From: Pseudomonadota bacterium
GTDB taxonomy: Bacteria; Desulfobacterota; Desulfovibrionia; Desulfovibrionales; Desulfomicrobiaceae
Reading direction: 5' to 3'
Length of the DNA: 64,000 bases
Assembly: GCA_018902545.1 (NCBI GenBank)
Contig: JAHIQM010000004.1
Coordinates: 124,882 to 188,881 of the forward strand
Below the pieces are notes generated by a model. The model was not told where the DNA came from. It saw only the letters and a list, made by a program, of their open reading frames with translations, and did not search any database. A program made the translations under genes and the position numbers. Below, in pieces: positions 16,290-46,485 of the stretch (position 1 is its first letter; each line of letters starts with the position of its first letter).

Positions 16290-16539
16290 AAATTTACGTC
16301 TTTAAACAATAATTCAAAATCCTGATTGCGCAATTTTATGAGAAGACAAAACCCGAATTGATTAGAATTGAATACATAACCGTTAAAACAGAACGATTAT
16401 TCATGAAGGTCACAGTTACGTATATTGCCATTGATTTCAATCGGCAAGACGCAATATTTACGCGCGTATCATAATGTTCAACCCAAATAAGACGACGTCT
16501 AAAGCAGCTTGATCTTCATTAAACTGCTGTTTTGCTTAA

Positions 16540-16860
16540 AAAAAAATTGAAATTTGAAATTTTTTCATAGTGGATAGTCCTGGAAATAAAATTGCCACAA
16601 ATTTCTACCTAACATCACAGAGATAATTAATAAATTTAAAAATAATTTAATATAACTATTATTATTTTGATTTTGTATTTTTAATATAAAAAATACAACA
16701 ATTTATCATTTTCATAAGTGATTTGAAAATGAATTTTTTACTTTTGTGTTAAATGAATTTTTTTTATTTTTATTTTTTTATTGACAAAAATTTTAATATA
16801 CAACCTAATTTGCGTAAATATAATTTTTTTATCTTGACTTTTGAATTTAGGTAAAACATT
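16540..16860. other. Extremely AT-rich intergenic/promoter region
   Basis: Long A/T tracts with very few G/C in an otherwise GC-rich window; TTGACA at 16781-16786. Confidence 0.8.
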
Positions 16861-16867
16861 TGTACTT

Positions 16868-16990
16868 CAGCATTGCTGAGTTCCGCCCAGGGCGGAAGCG
16901 GGGGACCCAATTCATTGGGGCGAATCGCATACGCGTAGGGCACCTTTCGGCCCGAGCCCGTCAGCTAACCCCGTAAGCATCGAAAGGAGA
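16868..16990 (+). ncRNA. c-di-AMP riboswitch (ydaO/yuaA family)
   Basis: gctgag, gcgggggaccca, tggggcgaat, gtagggcacc, cccgagcccgtcagctaaccccgtaagc; pseudoknot cctttcg (16943-16949) with cgaaagg (16981-16987). Confidence 0.9.
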
Positions 16991-17047
16991 CCTCCCTTCG
17001 GGGTGAGGCCTCCATACGGTCTACACCTCTTTTTTTGTGGAGGGTTT

Positions 17048-17197
17048 ATGTATTATCCCATCCTCGACATCTTGCGACTTCCTTGCAGCGCAAGTACTTT
17101 TATGTTGCGCCTGCGGCGTAAATCCACATCATCGTCTTCTGCCGTTTTGACTACTCACTACGGTGGCATCGACATTCCTTCTCCTCCGTTACTCTAG
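17048..17197 (+). CDS. 49-aa leader ORF between riboswitch and nuoA
   Basis: GGAGG RBS at 17039-17043 that can pair with riboswitch-proximal cctccat; MYYPILDILRLPCSAST... Confidence 0.4.
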   Translation: MYYPILDILRLPCSASTFMLRLRRKSTSSSSAVLTTHYGGIDIPSPPLL

Positions 17198-17369
17198 AAA
17201 AAGGCAGTCACTACATCTTATCGTGACATTCTTTTTTGAGATTATGCGGTCATATCCATTGGCGTGCCAAGCATTAATGAACTCGGAACAACCCGAGACG
17301 GAATCGCTGTAGCCAAATCTGTTTTGAACAATCTGTTGTCATAAATTTATTCTAGCAGGAGTGATCGTT

Positions 17370-17765
17370 ATGGTCTTCAGCTGGATGAACATGTCCATCC
17401 TCGCGTTTCTGGCGGCCGGCGTTGCGTTTGCAATCGGGCCGATTGTTGTATCCATCCTTTTGGCCCCCAAAGCCAGGGGCGGCGCTTTCGCCGAATCCTA
17501 CGAATGCGGCATTCCGGTACACGGGAGGCAGGCAAGAGTTAGCTTTGGCCTAACCTTCTATTTCTATGCACTCATCTTCATCGCCTTCGACGTCGACGTC
17601 CTCTACCTCTTCCCGGTGGCTGCCATGTATCCAGACACCGTTGGGTGGGTCCCCTTCTGGCAGGTCCTCGTCTTCATTTCCGTGCTGTTCACCGCGATCT
17701 TCTATTTTTCCAGCAAAGGAGTGTTCTCATGGCCCAGACGAATCCGCGTATCACCCCGGCGGTAA
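17370..17765 (+). CDS. nuoA: Complex I-like subunit A
   Basis: [26 protein letters not shown]; AGGAG RBS. Confidence 0.9.
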
Positions 17766-18262
17766 CAGACCTCGAGCCGCCGCTGCTCAGTCTGAAGCCG
17801 GCGCAGCAGGTACTCGACATCTGCAGGGCCATGTCGCTGTGGCCCATGACCTTTGGCCTGGCCTGTTGCGCCATCGAGATGATGGCCGTCGGCATGGCCC
17901 GTTTCGACATCTCACGCTTCGGGGCCGAGGTATTCAGGCCTTCGCCCCGCCAATCGGACCTCATGATCGTGGCCGGCACCGTGACGCGCAAGATGGCCCC
18001 GGCCCTGGTCCGCCTGTACGAGCAGATGCCCGCGCCCAAATACGTCATCGCCATGGGCAACTGCGCCATCTCCGGCGGCCCCTTTGCCGGGGAGCACAAC
18101 TACAACGTGATCGAGGGCGTGGACACGCTCGTGCCCGTGGACGTTTACGTCCCCGGTTGCCCGCCTCGCCCCGAGGGACTCCTGGAAGGGCTCTTCCTGC
18201 TCCAGAAAAAGATCACCGGAAAACGCTGGTGGCCCGAGGCCATGGGAGGAATCGAACCATGA
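17729..18262 (+). CDS. nuoB: Complex I-like subunit B (N2 Fe-S cluster)
   Basis: [38 protein letters not shown]. Confidence 0.93.
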
Positions 18263-18735
18263 GCGCGCATTTTCTCCAGGATCTCCCCTGCCTCTTCGCC
18301 GCGGCCCAGGACCCGCTCAGGACGGGGCTGACCTTTTCCGTCCTGCTCCCGCCGGATCAGGTTTGCCAATCCGCAAGGCTCTGCCGGGACAAAGGCTATC
18401 ACCTCGAGGACGTGACCGTGTCCGAAGTGCAGGAGGGCACCCTGGTGCTCTATCACTACGATCACTTCGACCGCCCGGGGCGCATCTGCTGCATGGCCGT
18501 CAGCCTGGACAACACCATCGACTCCATCGCGGGCATCTTCTCCGGCGCAGATTGGCACGAACGGGAATGCTTTGATTTCTTCGGCACGGTTTTCAACGGA
18601 CACGGAAACCTGCTTCCCCTGCTCCTGCCGCCCGACGTCCAGACGCCGCCGCTCAAGAAACCGGAACAAGGCAAAATATCCCTGACCACGCTCTTTCCCT
18701 GGGCCCAGGCCCCGGCAACCCCGGAGGAGGCATGA
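18259..18735 (+). CDS. nuoC: Complex I-like subunit C
   Basis: [13 protein letters not shown] motif; ATGA overlaps at both ends. Confidence 0.88.
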
Positions 18736-19889
18736 TGTTCACCAGGGAACAGATCGCCGAGCGCGGATTCTACACACAGCACTTCGAACAAGGGAAGCAG
18801 GACAACACCCTCATCCTGAACATGGGCCCCCAGCACCCTTCGACGCACGGCGTCCTGCGCGTCATGCTGGAGATCGACGGCGAGTACATCCTGCGCGCCG
18901 AGCCCGTGCTCGGGTACATCCACCGCATGCATGAAAAGATGGCGGAAGGGAAAACCTACGCCCAGTTCATCACCAACATGGGGCGGGTGGACTACCTGCA
19001 CGCGCTGGCCTGGAACTGGGCCTTCGTTGGCGCGGTGGAGAAACTCGGCGACACGCCGCCCACGCCACGCGCCGAATACCTGCGCGTCATCACCTGCGAA
19101 CTGAACCGCATCTCCTCACACCTGCTCTGGTGGGGCGCCTACCTGTTGGATCTCGGTGCCTTCACCCCCATCCTCTACGCATTCGGCGACCGCGAGGAAC
19201 TCCTGGACATCCTCCAGGATCTGACCGGCTCCCGGCTGACCTACGCATCCTTCACCTTCGGGGGGGTGGTCGCGGACATGAACGACGCACTCAGGGAGCG
19301 CATCACGCGTTTCATCGCGCGGATGCGCGACCGCCTGCACATGTACAAATCCCTGGTCACGGACAACTTCATCCTGCTCGGCCGGGTCGAGGACATCGGA
19401 CACATCCCCATGGACATGGCCGTGCGCTACGGTGCCACCGGCCCGGTCCTGCGCGGCAGCGGCGTGGCCTACGACGTGCGCCGGGCCGAGCCATATTCTG
19501 TCTATCCACAACTGGATTTCATTGTCCCGACGAGTGACCGCACCGATGCTTTGGGGCGCTATCTGGTGCGCATGCAGGAGCTGGAACAGAGCCTCAATAT
19601 CATAGAACAGGCGGTCGTTCAGATCCCCGAAGGCGAAATCCAGGCCAAGATGCCCAAAAAACCAAAAATTCCGGCTGGCGAAGTGTATTTCGCGGTGGAG
19701 GGAGCACGAGGAAAAATCGGATGCTACCTGCAAAGCGATGGCGGCGGCAGCCCGTATCGAATCAAGCTGCGCGCCCCGAGCTTCTCCAACCTGAGCCTTT
19801 TTGCCGAACTGAGCCAAGGCACACTTCTGGCGGACGCTGTATCCATCCTGGGCAGTCTGGACCTTGTCATCCCGGAGATTGACCGATGA
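18732..19889 (+). CDS. nuoD: Complex I-like subunit D (quinone-site type, no NiFe cysteines)
   Basis: NMGPQHPSTHGVLR, GYIHRMHEK, GRVDYL, LGSLDLVIPEIDR. Confidence 0.93.
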   Translation: MMFTREQIAERGFYTQHFEQGKQDNTLILNMGPQHPSTHGVLRVMLEIDGEYILRAEPVLGYIHRMHEKMAEGKTYAQFITNMGRVDYLHALAWNWAFVGAVEKLGDTPPTPRAEYLRVITCELNRISSHLLWWGAYLLDLGAFTPILYAFGDREELLDILQDLTGSRLTYASFTFGGVVADMNDALRERITRFIARMRDRLHMYKSLVTDNFILLGRVEDIGHIPMDMAVRYGATGPVLRGSGVAYDVRRAEPYSVYPQLDFIVPTSDRTDALGRYLVRMQELEQSLNIIEQAVVQIPEGEIQAKMPKKPKIPAGEVYFAVEGARGKIGCYLQSDGGGSPYRIKLRAPSFSNLSLFAELSQGTLLADAVSILGSLDLVIPEIDR

Positions 19890-20848
19890 TAGACCCGCAA
19901 CTTCTGCGCATCCTTATCGCGCTGGTGGGCATTCTGGGTTTCGTGGCCCTGAACGCCCTAGCCCTGGTCTATGCCGAACGAAAAATCGCCGGCCATGTCC
20001 AACGCCGTCCCGGACCCTACGAAGTCGGTCCCCATGGAATCCTGCAACCGCTGGCCGATGCCCTCAAACTCATGGGCAAACAGCTCACCACGCCGCGTGA
20101 TGCGGATCCGGTCATCTTCTGGCTGGCCCCGATTCTCTGCTTCATGCCCGTGGCCCTGTGCATTTTGCCCATCCCCTTCGGACCAAACCTGATCGCTCTG
20201 GACCTCAATCTCGGGATGGTGCTTATCCTCGCCTTCGCGGGTCTGGGTGTTCTGTCCATCTGCCTCGCAGGTTGGGGTTCCAACAACAAATGGGGTCTTC
20301 TTGGCGCAGCCCGGGCCGTGGCCCAAAACGTGGCCTATGAAATTCCCCTGTTGCTGGCCGTCCTGTCCGTAGCCTTCATGACTGGCAGCCTCAATCTGGC
20401 GACAATCACGGAGGGTCAGGGCACATGGCCCTGGCAATGGAATGTATTGCTCAACCCGCTCGGGTTCATCATCTACTTCATCTGCGCCCTGGCCGAAACC
20501 AACCGCGCGCCGTTTGACCTGCCCGAAGCCGAAAGCGAACTGACCGCCGGATTCCACACCGAATACTCGGGCATGGGTTTCGGCCTCTTCTTCATGGCCG
20601 AATACGCGAACATGATCGTGGCCTGCTCCGTGGCCACAGTCCTTTTTCTTGGCGGCTGGAACGGTCCCTTCGCCCCGGGCTGGTGGTGGTTCCTGCTCAA
20701 GATGTACGCCCTCATCTTCCTCATCATCCAGATCCGATGGACGTACCCCAGGGTGCGCTTCGACCAGCTCCTGAACCTGTGCTGGAGGTGGCTCGTGCCC
20801 TTGGCCCTCTTGAACCTGGTGTACGTCACCATCATCGTCAAACTCTAG
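19886..20848 (+). CDS. nuoH: Complex I-like subunit H
   Basis: ERKIAGHVQRRPGP, ETNRAPFDLPEAESELTAGFHTEYSG. Confidence 0.94.
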   Translation: MIDPQLLRILIALVGILGFVALNALALVYAERKIAGHVQRRPGPYEVGPHGILQPLADALKLMGKQLTTPRDADPVIFWLAPILCFMPVALCILPIPFGPNLIALDLNLGMVLILAFAGLGVLSICLAGWGSNNKWGLLGAARAVAQNVAYEIPLLLAVLSVAFMTGSLNLATITEGQGTWPWQWNVLLNPLGFIIYFICALAETNRAPFDLPEAESELTAGFHTEYSGMGFGLFFMAEYANMIVACSVATVLFLGGWNGPFAPGWWWFLLKMYALIFLIIQIRWTYPRVRFDQLLNLCWRWLVPLALLNLVYVTIIVKL

Positions 20849-20858
20849 GAGGCGTCGC

Positions 20859-21368
20859 GTGTACAGACTCGAAGAAATCAAGCGCGCGGCCCAGGGCATG
20901 TGGTCGCTCATCGCGGGCTTGAACATCACCGGGAAATACTTCCTGCAGCCCAACGTTACCATTCACTACCCCCGTCAGGAAGTGGACAACCTGGCGACGT
21001 TCCGGGGCCACATCGAGCTGATCCCCGAGGACGGAGATCCCCTGACCCCGCGCTGCATCTCCTGCGGCACGTGCGCCAAGGCCTGCCCGTCGGGCTGCAT
21101 CACCGTGACCAAGCAGAAGGCCCCCGCGCCCACGCCCGAGGAAGTCGAACAAGGGATCAAGCCCAAGGCGCCCAAGGACCCCGAAACCTTCCGGCTGGAC
21201 TTCACCCTCTGCTCCCTGTGCGGACAATGCGTGATGTCCTGCCCCGCAGACGCGATCAAATTCTCGCAGAACATCAACATCGCGGGATATTCGCGGCAGG
21301 ATTTCTATTTCGATCTCGTAGCCCGACTGCGCTCGCGGCTGCCAAAACATATCAACAAGGCGGAATGA
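20859..21368 (+). CDS. nuoI: Complex I-like subunit I (2x[4Fe-4S])
   Basis: CISCGTCAKACP and CSLCGQCVMSCP. Confidence 0.92.
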   Translation: MYRLEEIKRAAQGMWSLIAGLNITGKYFLQPNVTIHYPRQEVDNLATFRGHIELIPEDGDPLTPRCISCGTCAKACPSGCITVTKQKAPAPTPEEVEQGIKPKAPKDPETFRLDFTLCSLCGQCVMSCPADAIKFSQNINIAGYSRQDFYFDLVARLRSRLPKHINKAE

Positions 21369-21370
21369 CT

Positions 21371-21874
21371 ATGGAAACTCTCGCATTTTTCGCCTACGCC
21401 CTGTACCTGGCCATCATCGTCGGCGGCGGGTTTGTGGCCGTGACCAACCCGGACCTGGTCCGGGCCCTGGTTGGCCTGGTCGCGGCCATGTTCGGCGTCG
21501 CCGGCATGTACTTTCTCATGAACGCGCCTTTCGTCGGCCTCATGCAACTGCTCATCTACGTCGGCGCCATCAGCGTCCTCATCTTCTTCGCCATCATGCT
21601 TACCCGGCCACCCGCTGGAGGAGAGGAGCAGACACCTTCCACGCGCAGACCCATGGCCGTGCTGGCAGCGGCCGCGCCCGTGGCGCTCCTGGGCGTGATT
21701 TGCTTCAAAGCCTTCAAGCAGACCGTGGCCGTGCCCGATGAAACCGGCATCAAGGAACTCGGAATGGGGCTGCTCGGCACCTATGGTCTGGCTTTTGAAC
21801 TTATTTCCGTGGTGTTGCTGGTGGCCATGGTCGGCGCGGTACTGCTCGGATTCAAACGGCGGGAGGAAGCATGA
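21371..21874 (+). CDS. nuoJ: Complex I-like subunit J
   Basis: QLLIYVGAISVLIFFAIML, AFELISVVLLVAMVGA. Confidence 0.9.
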   Translation: METLAFFAYALYLAIIVGGGFVAVTNPDLVRALVGLVAAMFGVAGMYFLMNAPFVGLMQLLIYVGAISVLIFFAIMLTRPPAGGEEQTPSTRRPMAVLAAAAPVALLGVICFKAFKQTVAVPDETGIKELGMGLLGTYGLAFELISVVLLVAMVGAVLLGFKRREEA

Positions 21875-22179
21875 GCTCACTCTTTCTCTTTCATCTGGCG
21901 GGGCTCGTGCTGCTTGGATTGGGTTTTTTCGGTCTAATTCAGCGCAAGACCCTCGTGGGCATGCTCATCAGCGTGGAACTGCTCTTGAATGGCGCGGGCC
22001 TGTCCATCGTCGCCTCGGCCAAACTGACCGCGGCGGACGATGTTCTCGGACAACTCTCCTCGCTTTTGATCATGGGACTGGCTGCGGCCGAGGCGACCCT
22101 TGTTCTGGCCATCATCCTGGTTGTGCTGCGGCGCTTCGGCTCCGTCGAAACCGATACCATATCCACGCTGAGGGACTAA
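21871..22179 (+). CDS. nuoK: Complex I-like subunit K
   Basis: LISVELLLNGAGL, AAAEATLVLAI. Confidence 0.9.
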   Translation: MSSLFLFHLAGLVLLGLGFFGLIQRKTLVGMLISVELLLNGAGLSIVASAKLTAADDVLGQLSSLLIMGLAAAEATLVLAIILVVLRRFGSVETDTISTLRD

Positions 22180-23658
22180 ATGGAAAGCGCAATACTCCTT
22201 CTCCCCCTCATCGTCACCGGCCTCGCCCCTTTGGGTATCTGGATATTCCGCAGCACCCCCAACACCCGCGAAGCGGTCTCCTTCGTCGCGGCGGCCCTGA
22301 CCTTCCTCTTCATGCTCTGGATAGCACCCGCAGTGCTCCGCGGCGAGATCAACACGTACACCTTGTTCACCATCCTGCCCGGCATCACCGTAAAAATCTG
22401 CGCCGACGGGCTGACCATGATCTTCGGGATCGTGGCCAGCTTCCTGTGGTTCCTGGCCACGAGCTACAACGTCGGCTACATGCGGGGCCTGAACGAACAC
22501 GCCCAGACCCGCTACTACTTCTGCTTTGCCATCGCCATCTTCGGGGCCGTGGGTGTGGCCATGAGCGCGAACATTTTCACGCTCTACCTCTTCTACGAGA
22601 TCATCTCCATCTTCACGTACCCGCTGGTCGCGCATCATCAGGATGAAGAGGGATTCAGCGGCGCGCGCAAGTACATGGTCTACCTCATGGGTACCTCGAA
22701 GCTCTTCCTGCTTCCGGCCATGGTGCTGACCTACGTGCTCTGCGGCACCCTCGATTTCCAGCTCGGGGACGTGGTTCACGGCATCTTCCCCGCCGACGCC
22801 GATCCCTTCATGGTGCAGCTGACCTATGTGCTCTATATTGCCGGTCTGGCCAAGGCGGCGCTCATGCCCTTTCACAACTGGCTGCCCTCGGCCATGGTCG
22901 CGCCCACTCCGGTTTCGGCCCTGCTGCATGCGGTGGCGGTGGTCAAGGCGGGCGTGTTCTCGGTCAGCCGGATCATCCTGTCCGGATTTGGCCTTGAGAC
23001 CATGAACACCCTGAACCTGGGCATTCCCACTGCCTATCTGGCCGCCTTCACCATCGTCGTGGCGTCCATCATCGCCCTGACCAAGGATGACCTGAAGGCC
23101 AGGCTGGCCTATTCCACAGTCAGTCAGCTCTCCTATGTGATCATCGGCGTGACCATGCTCACACCTGACGCGGTCACCGGTGGCCTCGCCCACATCGCGC
23201 ACCACGCCTTCTCCAAGATCACCCTCTTCTTCGCGGCCGGAGCCATCTATGTGGCCACCCACAACAAGAAGATCAGCCTCATGGGCGGATTTGGACGCAA
23301 GATGCCCATCACCTTCGCCATGTTCTCCCTGGCCGCCCTCTCCATGATCGGCATGCCGCCGGTCAGCGGGTTCGTGTCCAAATGGTATCTGATCAACGGG
23401 GCCATGCAGGCTCACCAGATAATCATTCTCTGCGCGCTCCTCGGCAGCACAATCCTCAATGCCGGATACTTCACGCCAATCATCTACAGGGCTTTCTTCA
23501 TGGCCCCCGATCCGGGGGTGGACTACGACCACTACTCTGAAGCCCCCATGACCATGGTCATTCCCCTGACCATCACGGCCTGCATCAGCGTGCTGCTGGG
23601 CTTCTATCCAGAGCTCTTCTTCGGTTTCATCAACATTTTCACGGGATTTCGAGGGTAG
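22180..23658 (+). CDS. Antiporter-like subunit, MrpD/MnhD-type (492 aa)
   Basis: LYLFYEIISIFTYPLVAH, KAALMPFHNWLPSAMVAPTPVSALLHA, LAYSTVSQ, HHAFSKITLFF. Confidence 0.88.
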   Translation: MESAILLLPLIVTGLAPLGIWIFRSTPNTREAVSFVAAALTFLFMLWIAPAVLRGEINTYTLFTILPGITVKICADGLTMIFGIVASFLWFLATSYNVGYMRGLNEHAQTRYYFCFAIAIFGAVGVAMSANIFTLYLFYEIISIFTYPLVAHHQDEEGFSGARKYMVYLMGTSKLFLLPAMVLTYVLCGTLDFQLGDVVHGIFPADADPFMVQLTYVLYIAGLAKAALMPFHNWLPSAMVAPTPVSALLHAVAVVKAGVFSVSRIILSGFGLETMNTLNLGIPTAYLAAFTIVVASIIALTKDDLKARLAYSTVSQLSYVIIGVTMLTPDAVTGGLAHIAHHAFSKITLFFAAGAIYVATHNKKISLMGGFGRKMPITFAMFSLAALSMIGMPPVSGFVSKWYLINGAMQAHQIIILCALLGSTILNAGYFTPIIYRAFFMAPDPGVDYDHYSEAPMTMVIPLTITACISVLLGFYPELFFGFINIFTGFRG

Positions 23659-23660
23659 CC

Positions 23661-23921
23661 ATGGAAACAAGCACGCTTGGCGAACTTCTGGGCAAGGCCC
23701 GTCAAAACCTCGGCTTCTGGAAAAAGGTCATGTACATCATCATGATCCTTCTCGTAGGCCTGAACGTCCTCATTTATCCCCACACTCCCCATTTTCCGGG
23801 CGAAGGAAAGCCGGGCTATTGGGCTGTCTTTGCCCTGATCGCCACGGTGCTCATGGTGCGCATCTGCAAGGGTGCGGCCCACACCATTCTGGGCAAAAAG
23901 GAAGGCTACTATGACCGCTAG
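23661..23921 (+). CDS. Small two-helix membrane protein embedded in the operon
   Basis: 86 aa, two hydrophobic segments, GGAG-like spacing and overlap with the next gene. Confidence 0.75.
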   Translation: METSTLGELLGKARQNLGFWKKVMYIIMILLVGLNVLIYPHTPHFPGEGKPGYWAVFALIATVLMVRICKGAAHTILGKKEGYYDR

Positions 23922-25689
23922 TTTCCTGCATCCTTCAATTCCATTCCTGCTGGCGGCGCTTGTCATTCCGTTCATCAGGACGGACAAATACCGCTGGCTG
24001 CTGCCCCTCCCCGCCCTGGTGGCCGTGGGCTCTGTACTGACCATGTCGAACGGCGTGCACGGGCTGATCAGCTATCTTGGCCAGGTCCTGACCACGGGCC
24101 GGGTCGACACCCTGTCCATCGTCTTTGCCCATGTCTTCGCCATCCAGGCGGTCATCGGCTTCATCTACGCCATGCACTTGCAGGACCGCGCCCAGCATGT
24201 CGCCGCCAACCTTTACGTGGCCGGCGGCTTCGGCTGCGTTTTTGCCGGGGACTACCTGACCCTGTTCCTCTTTTGGGAACTGATGAGCATCGCCTCGACC
24301 ATGCTCATCTGGCTGAATCGCGCGCCACGCTCCACGGCTGCGGGCTTCCGCTACTTCCTGTTCCACACCCTGGGTGGCCTGATTCTTCTGGCCGGGATGC
24401 TCATCCGCTACAAGGCCACGGGCAGCTTCGCCTTTGAAGCCATCATCCCTGCCTCGGCCCAATGGTACGACTACCTGATCCTGACCGGATTCTGCGTCAA
24501 CGCCGCCGTGGTGCCCCTGCACGCATGGCTGCCCGACGCGTACCCCCGGGCGACCATCACCGGCGCGGTCTTCATGTCCGCCTACACCACCAAGACGGCC
24601 GTGTATGTTCTCCTGCGCGGCTTCTCGGGCTTCGAGGTGCTGGCCATCGGCGGCACCATCATGGCCGTCTACGGCGTCTGCTACGCCACCATCGAAAACA
24701 ATGCCCGGCGCATCCTGTCCTACCACATCGTGTCCCAGGTCGGGTACATGGTCGCCGGCATCGGCATCGCCTCCGAGCTGACCTTGAATGGCGCCTGCGC
24801 CCATGCCTACGCGCATATCATCTACAAGGGCCTCCTGTTCATGACCACGGGCGCGATCCTCTACGCCACGGGAACGGCCAAGCTCTCGGAGCTCGGCGGT
24901 CTGGTCCGCCGGTTGCCTTGGGTCTTTGTCCTTTACATGGTCGCGGCCGTGTCCATCTCGGGCATGCCCCTCTTCTCGGGATTCGTGTCCAAGACCATGG
25001 TCATCGCCGGGGCCGCCGAGGCGCACCGCACCTGGCTGGCTTTGGGCCTGGAGATTGCCTCCATCGGAACATTCCTGTCCGTCGGGCTGAAGCTTCCCTA
25101 CTTCGCCTTTTACGCCAAACCGGACGACATGACCCGGCCCATCACTCCCATACCTGCCAACATGTACGTGGCCATGGGCATGGGCGCGGCATTGTGCTTC
25201 ATCATCGGCATCCAGCCCGGCCTGCTGTACTCGCTGCTGCCCTTTGAAGCGGACTATGTGCCCTACACTCCGTGGCATGTGCTGCAAATCTCCATTCTGC
25301 TCGGCTTCACAGGCCTGGGCTTCGCACTCATGGTCCCCCGACTCACTCCGGCGGCCAAGCAAAATCTGGACTTCGAGTTCTTCTACATCTGGATCGGCCG
25401 GCTTTTCCTGATCATCTGCCACTACCCGTTTGCCCTCGTTGATACGTGGTGGAGCGAGATCTACCGCAGGGTCGGCATGGCCGGTCTTCTGGAGCGGGCC
25501 AAGGAAGCCAATCATTTTGATTGGCATATCATCGATGGCATTCTGGACGGAAGCGCCCTTGGCGTGCGCGGCATTGGCCGCCGTACGGCTTCAACGATCA
25601 ACGGCAAGCTTCAGGACTATATTGGCGGCGCGGTGATTCTGGCATTTGGCATCAGTGCCGTGGTGATGCTTTTCACCCTGCTTCGCTAA
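23911..25689 (+). CDS. Antiporter-like subunit, MrpA/D-NuoL-type (592 aa)
   Basis: FWELMSI, PLHAWLPDAYP, LSYHIVSQVGYM, HIIYKGLLF; C-terminal extension HFDWHIIDGILDG ... GKLQDY as in NuoL/MrpA. Confidence 0.87.
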   Translation: MTASFLHPSIPFLLAALVIPFIRTDKYRWLLPLPALVAVGSVLTMSNGVHGLISYLGQVLTTGRVDTLSIVFAHVFAIQAVIGFIYAMHLQDRAQHVAANLYVAGGFGCVFAGDYLTLFLFWELMSIASTMLIWLNRAPRSTAAGFRYFLFHTLGGLILLAGMLIRYKATGSFAFEAIIPASAQWYDYLILTGFCVNAAVVPLHAWLPDAYPRATITGAVFMSAYTTKTAVYVLLRGFSGFEVLAIGGTIMAVYGVCYATIENNARRILSYHIVSQVGYMVAGIGIASELTLNGACAHAYAHIIYKGLLFMTTGAILYATGTAKLSELGGLVRRLPWVFVLYMVAAVSISGMPLFSGFVSKTMVIAGAAEAHRTWLALGLEIASIGTFLSVGLKLPYFAFYAKPDDMTRPITPIPANMYVAMGMGAALCFIIGIQPGLLYSLLPFEADYVPYTPWHVLQISILLGFTGLGFALMVPRLTPAAKQNLDFEFFYIWIGRLFLIICHYPFALVDTWWSEIYRRVGMAGLLERAKEANHFDWHIIDGILDGSALGVRGIGRRTASTINGKLQDYIGGAVILAFGISAVVMLFTLLR

Positions 25690-25711
25690 CTTCGAACCAA
25701 GGACAGGTATT

Positions 25712-27250
25712 ATGACTGCATCATCCTTTCCGGTCCTCAGCGCGCTCATCTTCTTCCCCCTGGGCGCGGCCGCGGCCCTCCTGGCGGTGAAGAATGTCGA
25801 TCTCATCCGCAAGCTGACTCTGGTCGCGGGCATTATCGAAATCGCGCTGGCTCTGCCGCTGCTGGGCTTCGACCTTTCCTCGGGCGCCTTCCAGTTCGTC
25901 GAGAAGGCGGCCTGGGTGCCCCAATGGGGCCTGACCTATTCCCTCGGCGTGGACGGCATCAGCCTGCTCATGGTCTTTTTGACCGTGGCCTTGCTGCCCC
26001 TGTGCGTCCTCTGCTCGTGGAACTACATCTCCAAACGGATCAAAGAATTCCATATCGTTCTGCTGCTCATGACTTCTGCTTGCGTAGGCGTTTTCGTGGC
26101 GCTTGACTTCGTGCTCTTCTACCTCTTCTGGGAAGCCATGCTCGTGCCCATGTACCTGCTCATCGCGGTGTGGGGCGGGCCAAACAAGCGCTATGCATCG
26201 ATCAAGTTCTTCCTCTACACGCTGGCCGGTTCCACCCTGCTTCTGGTGGCCATCATCGCCTTCTACGTCGCGGGCGGAACGTTCTTTATCCCGGGACTGA
26301 TGACCAAGACCTTCAGCCCCGAGTTGCAATTCTGGACCTTTTTGGCCATGGCGCTCGCCTTTGCCATCAAGTGCCCCATGTTCCCCTTCCACACATGGCT
26401 TCCGGCCGCGCACGTGGAAGCGCCCACGGCCGGCTCCGTACTGCTGGCCTCGGTGCTCCTCAAAATGGGCACCTACGGCTTCCTGCGCTTTTGCATACCG
26501 CTGGCTCCGAACGCCTGCGTGACCTTCGCACCGCTCATGATCGCACTGTCCATCGCCTCCATTCTGTATGGCGGCGTCATCGCCTTGGGCCAGAAGGACA
26601 TGAAAAAGCTCATCGCCTACTCCTCGGTGGGACACATGGGCTTTGTCACCTTGGGCATCTTCCTGTTCAGCCAGCGTGGCGTGGAAGGAGCGATCATGCA
26701 GATGCTCAACCACGGCATCACCACCGGCGGACTGTTCATGCTCGTGGGCGCCGCCTATGAACGCAGTCACAGCCGCGAGATCGCGGACAACATGGGCCTT
26801 GGCAAATTCCTGCCGGCCTACATGTTCTTCTTCGGACTCTTCTCGCTCTCATCACTCGGGTTTCCGGGCACCAACTCCTTTGTGGGCGAGGCCCTGGTGC
26901 TCGTGGGCGCGTTTCAAAACAGCCTTTTGGTTGGCGGCCTGGCCATTCCGGGTGCCATGCTCGCAGCGGCCTACATGCTTCGCCTCTTGCAGAAACTGGC
27001 CTGGGGCCAGCCAAGTTGCGGGGCAAAGTTTGCTGACTTAAGTCGAAGGGAATGGATCTACCTGACTCCACTGGCAATCTTAGTCTTCTATATCGGCCTG
27101 GCTCCGACCTTGACGCTGAGGGTCATGGATCCGTCCATTGACAACCTGCTCAAAGAGTTCACGGCCAAGACCACGAACATCGCGGAGCACGACGCACCCG
27201 CCGGTCTGACTCAATACCTGGCACTCATCGGCAAGGAGGCACGTCCATGA
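25712..27250 (+). CDS. nuoM: Complex I-like subunit M
   Basis: GVDGISL, FWEAMLVPMY, PFHTWLPAAHVEAPT, IAYSSVGHMG. Confidence 0.92.
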   Translation: MTASSFPVLSALIFFPLGAAAALLAVKNVDLIRKLTLVAGIIEIALALPLLGFDLSSGAFQFVEKAAWVPQWGLTYSLGVDGISLLMVFLTVALLPLCVLCSWNYISKRIKEFHIVLLLMTSACVGVFVALDFVLFYLFWEAMLVPMYLLIAVWGGPNKRYASIKFFLYTLAGSTLLLVAIIAFYVAGGTFFIPGLMTKTFSPELQFWTFLAMALAFAIKCPMFPFHTWLPAAHVEAPTAGSVLLASVLLKMGTYGFLRFCIPLAPNACVTFAPLMIALSIASILYGGVIALGQKDMKKLIAYSSVGHMGFVTLGIFLFSQRGVEGAIMQMLNHGITTGGLFMLVGAAYERSHSREIADNMGLGKFLPAYMFFFGLFSLSSLGFPGTNSFVGEALVLVGAFQNSLLVGGLAIPGAMLAAAYMLRLLQKLAWGQPSCGAKFADLSRREWIYLTPLAILVFYIGLAPTLTLRVMDPSIDNLLKEFTAKTTNIAEHDAPAGLTQYLALIGKEARP

Positions 27251-28653
27251 TGCTCACGCTTCTTCCTGAAGCCCTGTTGCTTGGGCTCATCGTCATCCTT
27301 TTTGTCCAGGTCATAGTAAAGCCGGGCCAGGATTTGGCAGCCAAATGGCTGCCCTGGGCCTGTCTTGGACTTCTCGCCGCAACAGGAACAAGTCTCGCCC
27401 AAACGGGCCTGATGTTCGGCAAGACATACCAAATCGATGCACTTTCGCAATTCATCAAACTGGCCGTGGCCGCCGGGTTATTCATGGCCGTGGCCAATGC
27501 GAAGGGGCAGGCCACCCTCAAAGAACCCATGCGCACGGACTATTATCTCCTGCTGTGCATATCCGCCTGGGGGCTCATGCTGCTGGCCAGTTCCGTTGAA
27601 CTGATGACGATCTACATCTCGCTCGAGATCTCCTCCTACGCCCTCTATGCCCTGGTCCCCCTGCGAGCCGGAGACAAGCGGGCGGCAGAGGCCGGGATCA
27701 AGTATGTGCTCTTTGGCGCGGCCGCCACGGCGGTGTCCCTGTATGGTTTCGCGTACATCACCGCCGCCCAGCACACCACGTTCCTGGCGGAACTGACCAC
27801 CAAGGAATGGGATTTCGCGACCAACCCCGGCGCGCTCGTCGGCCTTGTCATGTTCCTGGCCGGGTTCATGTACAAATTGGCCCTGTTTCCGTTCCACTTC
27901 TGGTGTCCGGATGTGTACCAAGGCGCAAGCAACGAGACGGCCGCATACGCCGCGACCCTGCCCAAGCTCGGAGCCGTGGTCATCCTGGTCCGACTCGCCT
28001 CCCTGCTGGTGCCCGGACAACCCGGCATGACCATCCTGGCCATCCTCGCCGCCGTATCCATGACCTTTGGAAACCTGTCGGCCCTGGTCCAGGACGATGT
28101 AAAACGCATGCTCGGCTATTCTTCCATCGCCCATGCCGGATACGTTGTCATCGGCTTGGTCGCGGGCACGGCGGAAGGACTGGCCTCAGCCACCTTCTAT
28201 GCGCTGGTTTATGTCCTCATGAACCTGACCTGCTTCTGGGTGGTCTGCCACCTGTCCAAGGATGGCCGGAACATGCTGTACTCGGATCTGGATGGTCTGC
28301 ACCAGCGCAGCCCGGTCTTGGCGTTCGTGCTGGCCGTGGCCGCCTTTTCGCTGGTCGGCTTGCCGCCCACAGCCGGTTTCATGGGCAAGCTCTTCCTGCT
28401 GACCTCGGCCTGGGGGCATGGCTATGACTGGCTGGTCATCATCGCGGCGTTGAACACAGCCATCTCCATCTACTTCTATCTCAGCCTGGTGCGCCACGCA
28501 TACACCCACGACCCGGTCGCCACCCCTGCACCGGCAAAGGAAGGCGGGTTGGCGCTGGGCACGATATTCGCGAGCATAATCCTGTTGCTCGGCATCCTGC
28601 CGGCACCTGTTTACGACTTGGCCATGCAGGCAGGCAAAGCTCTTTTGCCTTAA
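27247..28653 (+). CDS. nuoN: Complex I-like subunit N
   Basis: AEAGIKYVLFG, FPFHFWCPDVYQGA, KRMLGYSSIAHAGY, GLPPTAGFMGK. Confidence 0.92.
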   Translation: MMLTLLPEALLLGLIVILFVQVIVKPGQDLAAKWLPWACLGLLAATGTSLAQTGLMFGKTYQIDALSQFIKLAVAAGLFMAVANAKGQATLKEPMRTDYYLLLCISAWGLMLLASSVELMTIYISLEISSYALYALVPLRAGDKRAAEAGIKYVLFGAAATAVSLYGFAYITAAQHTTFLAELTTKEWDFATNPGALVGLVMFLAGFMYKLALFPFHFWCPDVYQGASNETAAYAATLPKLGAVVILVRLASLLVPGQPGMTILAILAAVSMTFGNLSALVQDDVKRMLGYSSIAHAGYVVIGLVAGTAEGLASATFYALVYVLMNLTCFWVVCHLSKDGRNMLYSDLDGLHQRSPVLAFVLAVAAFSLVGLPPTAGFMGKLFLLTSAWGHGYDWLVIIAALNTAISIYFYLSLVRHAYTHDPVATPAPAKEGGLALGTIFASIILLLGILPAPVYDLAMQAGKALLP

Positions 28654-29145: not shown

Positions 29146-29260
29146 TCCCCGTATTAACACACAACCCATGGATGTTGAGGACGCCTGATTATATCTTCAA
29201 TCTCTATCCGGTTCTGACAAACGCCCTGAAAGAAGCGTTGCAGGCGATGGATTATCACAC

Positions 29261-31531
29261 ATGATTTTGAATATTCCAAGCCTCGTCACCCGCCACCCTC
29301 TCTTGTGCCTGGCCCTATCCTTGTTGTTGGCCTTTCCGTTCCTGCTCCAACTGCCCTATGTTCAGACCGTGGACAATGTGGACTATTTCACCATCGAGGA
29401 TGACCCGGATGTAGCCTTTTACAAGACCATCAAGGACACCTTCGGGGATGACGAGTTCTTTGTGATCGCTTTTTCCAGCCCGGAGATGTTCACGCCTTCT
29501 CTACTGCGCATGATTGCGACGATCACAAAAGAACTGGAAGCCATTCCCGAAGTCGAGGAGGTGCAGAGCCTCGCCAATGTGGATTATATTCACGGCGCCG
29601 AGGAATACTTCGAGGTGCGGCCGTTCCTTGAGCATATCCCCGATGATGCCTTGGGGCTTGACATCCTCAGGCGACAGGCGCTCAGCAATCCTTTGTATGT
29701 CGGCAACCTGATCTCCACCGACGGAAACACCGCGGCCATAGTGGTCTCTCCCAAAACGCACAGCGCGGAGGACGGCAGCTTCCGCAAACGTCTGCTCGAA
29801 CAGACCAAGGCGGTGCTGCACAATCACCGGGGCGTGGTCGATCAATTCCATCTGGCCGGTTGGACCATGACCAATTTCAGCCTCAGCCAGTTCATGAAGT
29901 CGGATGTGGCCACGTTCATCCCCTTGACGTACCTTTTCATCACCCTGACCATCTGGCTGACCTTCCGCAACCTGCGTCTGACGCTGCTGGCCCTGGCCAA
30001 CATTTCCATCTGCACCGGCGCCACCATGGGCCTGTTCCCTTTGCTCGGCATCACCCTGAACAACGTGACCACCATCGTCCCGCCCCTGGTCATGGCTCTG
30101 GCGCTCACCGACACGGTTCACATTTTCTCCCATCTGGACAAAAAACTGCTGGCTCAAAGCCAAAGTCCTGCCGAGGCATTGAAAATCGTTCTGAAACGGG
30201 TGCTCATCCCCAGCTTCCTGACGAGCCTGACGACCGCAGCGGGGTTTATTTCCCTTGTCCTGAGCGACATCCCGCCGATCAAGGAGTTTGGCTATGTGGC
30301 CTCGATCGGAATGGTCTTTGAGTTCGTTTTTTCCTTCCTGCTGCTGCCGCCCCTGCTGCTCCTGTGCAACCCTGGGAAAATCTTCATCCATGACAGCAAC
30401 GGCCAGGGTTTCAACGCTTTTCTTTCCGGGCTGTCCAATTTGGTGCACAGCTATCCGCGACGCATCACCGCAGTCACCGCACTTCTGCTGCTGGGCGCGC
30501 TGTGGGCCGCCTCCACGATAAAGGTGGAAACCAACCTCCTTGAATACTTCAAACCCTCCAGCACGCTTCGGCACGAATTGGAGTACGTCGAATCACGCCT
30601 GAGCGGCGTAGGCACCGTGGACATTTCCCTCAAAGCCCAGGAGCGGGATGCATTCCGCGACCCGGCGAACCTGGCCGTCATCGAACGCGTGCAATCATTG
30701 GCCGAGACCCTGCCCGGCGTGGACAGGACCATATCCTTTGTGGATTTTTTAAAAGACATGAACATGTCCTTTCATGACGAGAATCAGGACTTCTACAGCA
30801 TCCCTGACAGCCGGGAGCTGGTCTCCCAATACCTACTGCTCTACGATTCCGGCGACATGGAAGATTTCATCACCACGGAATACGACCATGCCCGAATCTT
30901 GATCCGCATTTCCGAACACAATTCCGCGAGCCAGGCCAGGATAATCGCCGCGCTGCGGTCCTTCATCGACCAGAACGAAAACAGCGGCCTGCAGATTCAG
31001 GTCACAGGCAGGGCCGTCCAGGATGTGAACACCATCGATGCCCTGGTCCAGGGGCAGGTGCAGAGCCTGACCATGGCCGCAGGGGTGATCTCCCTGATCA
31101 TGATCCTCGCCATGCGCTCTCTTGCCATCGGCTTACTGAGCCTTGTCCCGAATATGGTTCCGATTGTCCTCAATTTCGGGATCATGGGCGCCTTAGGAAT
31201 CCCTTTAAATACCTCCACAGCCCTAATTTCCGTGATCGGCCTTGGTATCGCAGTGGATGACACCATTCATTTCCTGACAGAGTACAACCTGAGACGAGCC
31301 GAGAAAATGCCCATCCCGGAAACATTGCGGCGAGTCACCATGGACAAGGGTCTGGGCATTTGTTCATCCACGGTGATCCTCTTCATCGGATTCAGCGTGC
31401 TCATGCTCAGCAATTTCGTGCCCACCATGAGCTTCGGATTTTTAAGCGCGGTAATCATGATAACGGCCTGGATTGGGGATATGATCGTGCTCCCGGCGGT
31501 AGTGCTTTCGTTTTGCAGAAAGAAAACATGA
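29261..31531 (+). CDS. RND/MMPL family exporter
   Basis: 756 aa, two repeats of TM plus periplasmic domain; LALTDTVH and GIAVDDTIH motifs. Confidence 0.9.
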   Translation: MILNIPSLVTRHPLLCLALSLLLAFPFLLQLPYVQTVDNVDYFTIEDDPDVAFYKTIKDTFGDDEFFVIAFSSPEMFTPSLLRMIATITKELEAIPEVEEVQSLANVDYIHGAEEYFEVRPFLEHIPDDALGLDILRRQALSNPLYVGNLISTDGNTAAIVVSPKTHSAEDGSFRKRLLEQTKAVLHNHRGVVDQFHLAGWTMTNFSLSQFMKSDVATFIPLTYLFITLTIWLTFRNLRLTLLALANISICTGATMGLFPLLGITLNNVTTIVPPLVMALALTDTVHIFSHLDKKLLAQSQSPAEALKIVLKRVLIPSFLTSLTTAAGFISLVLSDIPPIKEFGYVASIGMVFEFVFSFLLLPPLLLLCNPGKIFIHDSNGQGFNAFLSGLSNLVHSYPRRITAVTALLLLGALWAASTIKVETNLLEYFKPSSTLRHELEYVESRLSGVGTVDISLKAQERDAFRDPANLAVIERVQSLAETLPGVDRTISFVDFLKDMNMSFHDENQDFYSIPDSRELVSQYLLLYDSGDMEDFITTEYDHARILIRISEHNSASQARIIAALRSFIDQNENSGLQIQVTGRAVQDVNTIDALVQGQVQSLTMAAGVISLIMILAMRSLAIGLLSLVPNMVPIVLNFGIMGALGIPLNTSTALISVIGLGIAVDDTIHFLTEYNLRRAEKMPIPETLRRVTMDKGLGICSSTVILFIGFSVLMLSNFVPTMSFGFLSAVIMITAWIGDMIVLPAVVLSFCRKKT

Positions 31532-32006
31532 CAGGCTACCTCAAAATAGCGATCTACTTCGTCACTGCAGAATGCTGACTTTCACGTATGTGTAAAGTAC
31601 ACTTAAGTTCTCAATTTTCTTTATTACACGCATCTCACCATTTTTGAAAAGCCAAAACATTTTTTCAAAGGGGCTGATTGCATTCTTGGCAGGTCAAAAA
31701 GAGTCATAATTAACCAGACTGCAAAGAACACCCGCAAACAAACAAGCTCATCTTGCGTGCATTGTACGAGCTGGGGAAAATCTTACAAGCATACCCCCTC
31801 AGGGAGAAATGGCGTTCTTGATCGTAATCGGTTCGTCATGGAGAGGTTTCGATGAGCTGTTGGGAGAAAATACCGATACACGTAGGGCCAGATCAGTATT
31901 GAGTTCTTCGCTCAAACAAGACACCATCCCCAAGTTTCTCGCGTCGACTGGCCTGCTTTTTCAACATGGAGCACCTCTCGACACGAAATGAAGAAGGGAG
32001 ACGCTC

Positions 32007-46400: not shown

Positions 46401-46485
46401 TGGTGTCGAAGGGGGGACTCGAACCCCCACGGGAAATCCCACTACCCCCTCAAGATAGCGTGTCTACCAATTCCACCACTTCGAC
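46401..46485 (-). tRNA. tRNA-Leu (GAG)
   Basis: Acceptor gtcgaag/cttcgac plus ACCA, D-loop tggaattggtag, anticodon arm ctatc-ttGAGgg-ggtag, variable arm, ggttcgagt T-loop; 85 nt. Confidence 0.95.

Follow-up and report, generated by a model that had tools for sequence, protein, structure and literature searches.

The 64,000-nt stretch of contig JAHIQM010000004.1 analyzed here (the window, to whose positions all coordinates refer) carries on its + strand, in this order, a riboswitch aptamer of the cyclic di-AMP (c-di-AMP) class, a short conserved open reading frame (ORF) and a 13-gene operon for a complex I-like, redox-driven ion pump (nuo). The genome of origin is coded G000, the other genomes compared bear further G-numbers, and individual loci bear L-numbers (L015 is the G007 locus and L085 the contig DLFY01000310.1). 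The analysis makes it probable that a functional c-di-AMP OFF riboswitch heads a single transcript composed of a promoter, the aptamer, a two-part expression platform, the leader ORF and the entire nuo operon. What is new here is a standard aptamer on a previously undescribed class of target.

Application of Rfam cmscan to the whole window yielded a match to RF00379 (c-di-AMP riboswitch, ydaO/yuaA class) with a score far above the gathering score of 38 bits (E 2.7e-21; Table 1), spanning the full model (positions 1-134) without truncation; the only other Rfam family at gathering level is a transfer RNA at 46404-46485. Both strands of the aptamer pseudoknot, CCTTTCG (16943-16949) and CGAAAGG (16981-16987), are readable in the sequence and are either invariant or changed from A to G across all ten related Desulfomicrobium leaders, and the claim of a complete ydaO/yuaA aptamer made in a first-pass annotation of this DNA is thereby confirmed. 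The element also shows the layout of its class (a 5' leader position on the gene strand, a promoter-like box before it and a predicted expression platform after it) and is the single RF00379 copy in the 3.7-Mb G000 genome. By all these features, the aptamer is an ordinary RF00379 member that presumably binds its ligand, and it is the target that is out of the ordinary.

The target operon (17370-28653) comprises nuoABCDHIJK, a gene for an MrpD-like antiporter subunit, an ORF of 86 amino acids (aa), a second MrpD-like gene, nuoM and nuoN. Its first gene, nuoA, starts 376 nt past the end of the aptamer (the first-pass estimate was ~380 nt), with an AGGAG sequence 8 nt 5' of the start, and most genes of the nuoA-nuoK stretch (17370-22179) overlap or abut their neighbours. 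All ten subunits of the membrane arm and Q-module of complex I (NuoA, B, C, D, H, I, J, K, M and N) were matched by Pfam and NCBIfam models, while a search confined to the operon found none of nuoE, nuoF and nuoG, which encode the NADH-oxidising module. No canonical NuoL was recognized either, as both MrpD-like proteins score under the cut-offs of the NuoL models; instead, this pair passes the NCBIfam cut-offs of NF006236 (788 bits) and NF009310 (700 bits), in agreement with the Mrp-type subunits proposed earlier, and together with the 86-aa ORF occupies the place of nuoL. The 86-aa ORF has no family match in Pfam or NCBIfam, is 88-99% identical in five relatives and is probably an unrecognised small subunit of the complex.

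The region between the aptamer and nuoA is not empty. The first-pass annotation had stated that no other substantial gene lies before nuoA; the common strand of aptamer and operon stands, and the empty gap does not, for a conserved ORF of 49 codons with its own Shine-Dalgarno (SD) sequence is found there, so that this leader ORF, not nuoA, is the first cistron after the aptamer. In G000 and four relatives, the ORF is uninterrupted and agrees in length and in the position of its stop codon; G013 and G020 have a 63-codon version. Two parts of the ORF differ in their mode of evolution. Over codons 31-49, the proportion of nonsynonymous differences (pN, 0.07-0.15) is far below that of synonymous ones (pS, 0.38-0.63), variable sites at codon positions 1/2/3 number 4/5/11, and the comparison of G000 with G007 gives 10 synonymous and 3 nonsynonymous changes (binomial P = 3e-4), which together indicate that the last 19 codons are under coding-type constraint; the evolution of codons 1-30 looks neutral. 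An 80-nt C-rich, G-poor stretch within the ORF (C 34-42%, G 6-16%) is common to all six leaders. A terminator-like hit at 17082-17094, inside the ORF, was considered and rejected, being a 5-bp stem that is unconserved in relatives.

The sequence between the pseudoknot and this ORF has the composition expected of an expression platform. Directly 3' of the pseudoknot strand follow AGACCUCCC, a hairpin with its U7 tract, the GGAGGG SD sequence and, at 17048, the ATG of the leader ORF. An alternative hairpin termed H1, a candidate antiterminator present in the unconstrained fold of G000, takes up two G's of the pseudoknot strand, the anti-SD sequence ACCUCCC (16990-16996) and the 5' strand of the predicted terminator. 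Its calculated stability (RNAfold) depends strongly on these two G's, being -14.1 kcal/mol with and -8.0 kcal/mol without them in G000, and -10.5 to -11.4 vs. -4.6 to -5.3 kcal/mol in four relatives. The predicted intrinsic terminator (-16.0 kcal/mol) becomes the minimum-free-energy fold when the pseudoknot strand is occupied, and an anti-SD:SD helix then surrounds it. The four other leaders of the G000 type have counterpart hairpins (-10.1 to -13.9 kcal/mol) with altered stem sequences and a U7-U9 tract behind them, and the T-run is absent from the G013 and G020 leaders and from all leaders of kup genes. Of the ten nuo- and kup-linked leaders folded, nearly all are predicted to form the anti-SD:SD helix, and every one contains the complementary boxes. 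As modelled, the platform would thus give a coherent OFF switch.

A second requirement is that transcription passes from this leader into nuo. On the 5' side, the six nuo-linked leaders, when aligned, all have an unchanged TTGAC box 25 nt before the aptamer, and the sequence further 5' of it is unalignable among them. In G013, the sole promoter-like site on the gene strand, TTGACA-17-TATTTT, lies directly 5' of the aptamer and includes this box. The aptamer of G000 is also preceded by a 570-nt, extremely AT-rich intergenic stretch (16290-16860), which contains the majority of promoter-like hits in this region and has no alignable counterpart in the upstream regions of the relatives. On the 3' side, a consensus scan found no sigma-70-like site on the + strand between 17000 and 17370 in G000, nor any on the gene strand in the matching interval of G018, G013 and G007; for a nuoA promoter at 17200-17360, which the first-pass annotation had named as a finding that would speak against riboswitch control, no sigma-70-like candidate was therefore seen in any of the four genomes scanned. 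A possible sigma-54 promoter at TGGCGTGCCAAGCA (about 17264-17277) was rejected on account of its wrong GG-to-GC spacing and lack of conservation. The one related operon without a riboswitch, that of G010, shares with the spacer just the last ~40 nt (the 5' untranslated region including the nuoA SD; alignment and blastn), which argues that the spacer has kept no ancestral nuo promoter. Behind the leader ORF, a 5-bp stem is the sole terminator candidate, and not a convincing one. Given this and the lack of sigma-70-like sites in the gap, co-transcription of the aptamer leader with nuo is the simplest reading, and c-di-AMP would then control nuo transcription.

Two hairpins of the spacer are recorded separately. 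One, GTCAC-N11-GTGAC (17203-17240) followed by a T-rich run, begins ~10 nt past the stop of the leader ORF, close enough for its 5' arm to be covered by a ribosome terminating there; the other, CTCGG-N6-CCGAG (17282-17297), is matched in three relatives by a hairpin of another sequence. Either of them could be a further attenuation or stability element. The spacer of G007 (L015) contains an insertion of ~140 nt, which is lacking in the other five leaders.

Table 1. Positions of the leader elements and operon genes in the window.
Feature	Position	Strand	Basis or description
Promoter-like region	16797..16839	+	TATACA-16-TATAAT (16797-16824, consensus scan) and TTGACT -35-like box (16834-16839)
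c-di-AMP riboswitch aptamer	16864..16994	+	RF00379, 95.5 bits, pseudoknot strands included
H1, alternative hairpin (candidate antiterminator)	16986..17013	+	RNAfold
Predicted intrinsic terminator	17000..17036	+	11+11-nt bulged stem 17000-17029, U7 17030-17036
SD of leader ORF, GGAGGG	17039..17044	+	Complementary to anti-SD 16990-16996
Leader ORF, 49 codons	17048..17197	+	MYYPILDIL...AVLTTHYGGIDIPSPPLL*; own SD, conserved
Spacer between leader ORF and nuoA	17198..17369	+	172 nt
nuoA	17370-17765	+	Pfam/NCBIfam
nuoB	17729-18262	+	Pfam/NCBIfam
nuoC	18256-18735	+	Pfam/NCBIfam
nuoD	18732-19889	+	Pfam/NCBIfam
nuoH	19886-20848	+	Pfam/NCBIfam
nuoI	20859-21368	+	Pfam/NCBIfam
nuoJ	~21374-21874	+	Pfam/NCBIfam
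nuoK	21871-22179	+	Pfam/NCBIfam
MrpD-like antiporter subunit	22180-23658	+	NCBIfam
86-aa ORF	23661-23921	+	Conserved, family-less
Second MrpD-like subunit, 605 aa	23872-25689	+	NCBIfam
nuoM	25712-27250	+	TIGR01972, 563 bits, above cut-off
nuoN, operon end	27247-28653	+	TIGR01770, 341 bits, above cut-off

Combining these elements, we propose the following mode of action. A promoter at about 16797-16860 would start a transcript running through aptamer, platform and leader ORF into nuo. At high c-di-AMP, the ligand would lock the pseudoknot strand CGAAAGG, and the competing H1 would lose two G's worth ~6 kcal/mol; with H1 weakened, the terminator could form and transcription would halt before the leader ORF and nuo. 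In those transcripts that escape, the freed anti-SD would pair with the SD of the leader ORF, and the untranslated C-rich leader could then be exposed to Rho. At low c-di-AMP, H1 would form first, allowing read-through, translation of the leader ORF and expression of nuo. Both the OFF direction and any role of Rho are predictions of this folding model.

Comparative analysis of the genus further supports the link between riboswitch and operon. Among 25 Desulfomicrobium species genomes, seven bear nuoA, and in six of these seven RF00379 is located ~380 nt 5' of the orthologous nuo operon, so that the link noted in the first-pass annotation is indeed kept in relatives; the seventh species, G010, lacks RF00379, both genome-wide and within the 577 nt of sequence at hand 5' of nuoA. 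The six nuo-linked aptamers score 90-98 bits and are 88-100% identical at a nuoA pS of 0.16-0.66. For the G000 copy against those of the five other species, aptamer identity is 88-93% and synonymous sites of nuoA differ by 35-66%, i.e., the aptamer changes ~5x more slowly than these sites. In four nuo-linked genomes, G000 included, RF00379 occurs just once and a donor for gene conversion is lacking, so this process cannot account for the conservation of the aptamer there. Better conserved than nuoA synonymous sites in such donor-less genomes, the aptamer is, by this substitution pattern, under purifying selection at the nuo location. Beyond the platform, the leader is unalignable between the two nuo leader types.

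The distribution of this arrangement is narrow. Among 80 nuoA-related loci (from Adiutrix, Syntrophus, Syntrophorhabdus, Desulfovibrionaceae and others), with the Rfam check made on the 19 nearest loci and G010, the aptamer was found in Desulfomicrobium-type contigs only. A contig deposited as 'Phycisphaerales bacterium UBA7708' (L085) carries a Desulfomicrobium-type aptamer, a leader ORF and nuoA (NuoA 91% identical), and is probably a mis-binned Desulfomicrobium contig. In a GyrB tree built from tblastn segments, the species with riboswitch and nuo are interspersed with close relatives that lack both (e.g., G021 beside G018 and G014; G024, G002 and G019 beside G013), which marks the module as accessory, gained or lost as a unit. 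The riboswitch-nuo combination is thus a patchy accessory module of one genus.

The wider distribution of the aptamer in the order points to its source. A sample of 401 Desulfovibrionales genomes contains 66 RF00379 copies in 49 genomes; by examination of the downstream DNA of all 66, a gene for Kup (K_trans) or for a KimA-like APC permease directly follows 60 of them, and the remaining six are the Desulfomicrobium copies before nuo. The G000 copy departs in the same way from the usual associations of the class with K+ transport, osmolyte uptake and the cell wall, which are typical and not defining. G013 and G020 carry both a nuo-linked and a kup-linked copy, and in G013 the intact riboswitch-kup gene is convergent to an MMPL gene, at a distance of 17 kb from the nuo-linked riboswitch. 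Common to the ten Desulfomicrobium leaders, whether linked to nuo or to kup, are the anti-SD AGACCUCC, the SD and the placing of the first ATG, +86 to +94 relative to the aptamer core; eight of the ten also have a GGGGCCUUCC-type box, from which two kup leaders of G001 deviate; this box became the 5' strand of the terminator in the G000 branch. Given the kup/kimA-like norm across the order, the direction of change is that of a kup-type leader captured in front of nuo, which, from this comparison of leaders, we regard as the most likely origin of the nuo leader.

In this origin, the shared platform carries the weight and the leader peptide does not, since the Kup signal in the latter is weak under a broader profile. 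The first ~90 nt after the ATG of the G013 leader align with kup DNA at a collinear offset (z = 4.8), and the G013 leader ORF scores 13.2 bits against a hidden Markov model of four Kup N-terminal sequences, a value reached by 0/500 shuffles; the G000 leader ORF scores 1.9 bits against the same model (8/500 shuffles). With a broader Kup N-terminal profile most of the leader-ORF signal is lost (the G000 score is reached by 138/1000 shuffles), a stringent local DNA alignment of the G000 leader with kup is not significant, and Pfam gives no match to the leader peptides even at E = 10. A motif of the G000 branch, YG[GD]ID[IT]PSPPL, occurs at the same codon offset as YGDIGTSPLY of Kup. The resemblance of the G000-branch leader ORF to the Kup N-terminus is only suggestive, and it is possible that the leader ORF is a relic of it. 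The U-tract is confined to the branch containing G000, as expected if control had to reach a long operon; with its later gain there, a switch acting on translation would have come to act on transcription and could thus govern such an operon. Two loci from another family of the order, L128 (G380) and L129 (G278), encode riboswitch-linked Kup proteins 84-85% identical to that of G013, compared with 61-64% for most Kup proteins of this family, and the riboswitch-kup cassette may move between families.

The host is equipped for c-di-AMP synthesis, as a search prompted by the first-pass annotation found the DAC domain (PF02457) twice in the G000 genome. The first protein with this domain, a 251-aa CdaA with a CdaA_N membrane domain, has its gene between one for a pterin-binding (folP-type) protein, upstream, and a YbbR/CdaR gene, downstream; the second has 491 aa and a DACND-DACNH-DAC architecture. 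The same genome has two genes of the TrkH/KtrB family and no genes for Kup, KimA-like proteins or KdpA. With the K+ importers of the kup/kimA-like kind absent and RF00379 present once, the sole c-di-AMP riboswitch of G000 sits on nuo. The G000 assembly is rated 99.8% complete and has no N-runs, and no rplL, rpoB or rpoC N-terminal sequence was found in it; the rplL-rpoB-rpoC region is probably missing at a contig break. By its appearance, the assembly derives from an isolate in culture.

Several observations weigh against a riboswitch-headed nuo transcript. In G000, the conserved -35 box has a weak -10 element as its partner, and the 330-nt distance to nuoA may harbour a promoter of a type outside the model of our scan. 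By minimum-free-energy folding, a clean switch is seen for the G000 and G018 leaders and not for those of G007 and G014, and in G013 and G020, which have no terminator, control of nuo would hang on Rho or a polarity effect. In the same two genomes, the nuo- and kup-linked aptamers share species-specific substitutions, and gene conversion by the kup copy could keep the aptamer there without any selection for nuo control. Finally, G010 runs the same operon without a riboswitch. This last point also favors the rival view that the riboswitch governs only the leader ORF, as a small peptide or regulatory ORF, with nuo expressed mainly from an unrecognised promoter of its own in the 170-nt spacer. 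The leader ORF is indeed the immediate downstream cistron, its last 19 codons show peptide-level constraint, the length of the spacer leaves room between its stop and nuoA, and G007 tolerates the insertion there. Yet no promoter-like site was seen in the spacers of the four genomes scanned, the ancestral sequence before nuoA is limited to ~40 nt, and nothing better than the 5-bp stem would end a transcript after the leader ORF. Moreover, the peptide itself is not conserved between the 49- and 63-codon leader types (pN/pS about 0.6 for the latter, in G013 and G020), whereas both types retain the aptamer and the arrangement. We regard separate control of nuo as unlikely on these grounds.

A rearrangement that destroyed kup and stranded the riboswitch 5' of nuo, with no adaptive regulatory role, would account for the kup-type platform, for the stretch of kup 5' coding sequence that G013 and G020 also share, for the complete loss of kup and kimA-like genes from G000 and for the neutral evolution of the first 30 leader-ORF codons. 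Such an orphan would not be expected to be far better conserved than neutral sites in four donor-less genomes, to retain its Rfam score in six copies, to acquire a new U-tract terminator in one branch or to be followed by an ORF open in all seven sequences compared; furthermore, given a working terminator, the aptamer would put the downstream genes under c-di-AMP even if stranded, and we give this explanation very little credence. It is also improbable, in our estimate, that nuo is controlled by another logic, either an ON switch or one acting mainly through translation or Rho instead of the intrinsic terminator. Folds that are not cleanly two-state in every leader, the lack of a U-tract in G013 and G020 and the C-rich, G-poor segment inside the leader ORF of all six leaders are compatible with it, but the energetics of H1 and terminator fit an OFF switch, and the same anti-SD:SD design in kup leaders must, according to known physiology, repress a K+ importer at high c-di-AMP. 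Characterised c-di-AMP riboswitches are known to turn expression off on ligand binding, which is in line with the OFF transcript preferred here.

Within the operon, identity to relatives is mosaic. The G000 leader, NuoA-D and NuoI are closest to the type of G007, G018 and G014 (NuoI 93-95% identical, vs. 80-82% to G013 and G020), whereas NuoH, both MrpD-like subunits and the 86-aa ORF are 97-99% identical to those of G013 and G020 vs. 88-95% to the former group. This pattern suggests recombination between Desulfomicrobium species inside the nuo operon. The MMPL/RND-type gene after nuoN (29191-31534) is outside the conserved module; it has 90% DNA identity to a gene of G023, which matches in this gene alone without flanking synteny, so that an empty-site analysis through it gave no result, and in G007 and G018 its best match (69-73% identical) is on a contig other than that of the nuo operon.

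In known systems, c-di-AMP is a messenger for K+ and turgor. The riboswitches ydaO (kimA) and yuaA (ktrA) of B. subtilis resemble the G000 element in aptamer class, 5' leader position and predicted terminator-based OFF design; they control K+ importers, whereas the G000 copy precedes a leader ORF and a 13-gene complex I-like operon in a Gram-negative lineage of sulfate reducers. The c-di-AMP riboswitch regulon comprises K+ and amino-acid transporters as well as cell-wall-remodelling and osmotic-shock proteins (PMC7266159). Control of a multi-gene ion-transport operon has a precedent in kdpFABC of B. thuringiensis, where a c-di-AMP riboswitch is reported to control transcription of the operon (PMC6488665). 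The G000 leader differs in having an ORF between switch and operon, and the energy-consuming Kdp is a K+-importing ATPase, a direct device of K+ homeostasis, in contrast to the redox-driven ion pump Nuo. The closest likeness is found in the kup- and kimA-like-linked copies of Desulfovibrionales, which agree with the nuo leader in aptamer, anti-SD, GGGGCCUUCC-type box and core-to-ATG distance and are its likely parents; they have the transporter gene directly after the leader and no U-tract, as opposed to the short ORF of the nuo copies and the terminator gained in the G000 branch.

With respect to the target, a 'headless' Nuo is known from Desulfovibrionales, and there are complex I variants with extra Mrp-type pumping subunits. 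The G000 operon is similar to both in having nuoABCDHIJKMN with MrpD-type subunits and no nuoEFG in the operon, and differs from them in its c-di-AMP riboswitch, for which no case is reported in the searchable literature. Our full-text search, from which the founding papers of the class were absent, found no paper tying a c-di-AMP riboswitch to nuo or complex I, consistent with the earlier statement that no example has been described.

The proposal of the first-pass annotation that an ion pump with Mrp-type subunits is placed under c-di-AMP thus holds for the link itself, which is real, conserved and, as far as substitution patterns tell, under selection; most likely it is the capture of a kup leader in one genus and, given the patchiness of the module, it is not a general property of sulfate reducers. 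The turgor control of energy conservation is a physiological hypothesis. In its full form, according to which c-di-AMP adaptively sets the level of an energy-conserving pump, a headless Nuo with two additional MrpD-type (cation-channel) subunits would have joined the K+/turgor regulon via a captured kup riboswitch, the kup start would have become a regulatory leader peptide (...DIPSPPLL) and a new terminator would have extended control to the 11-kb operon; we put this forward tentatively and consider it rather doubtful at present. Two rationales, both speculative, can be offered: electrogenic cation extrusion may have to keep step with K+ uptake, or a role in cation handling may fall to the complex through its MrpD-type subunits. 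With an OFF switch, the pump would be made at low c-di-AMP, the K+-hungry state, and electrogenic cation extrusion would be switched on together with riboswitch-controlled K+ uptake or, where kup was lost, instead of it.

The reach of the finding is limited to six or seven species of one genus, with a patchy distribution, and relatives with and without the module exist for comparison. The locus offers a rare stepwise record of riboswitch exaptation, from a kup leader through its capture before a new operon and the decay of the coding start to a leader ORF to the gain of a terminator. If nuo shares a transcript with the riboswitch, membrane energisation itself would be under c-di-AMP, in a Gram-negative anaerobe where the biology of this messenger has hardly been explored.

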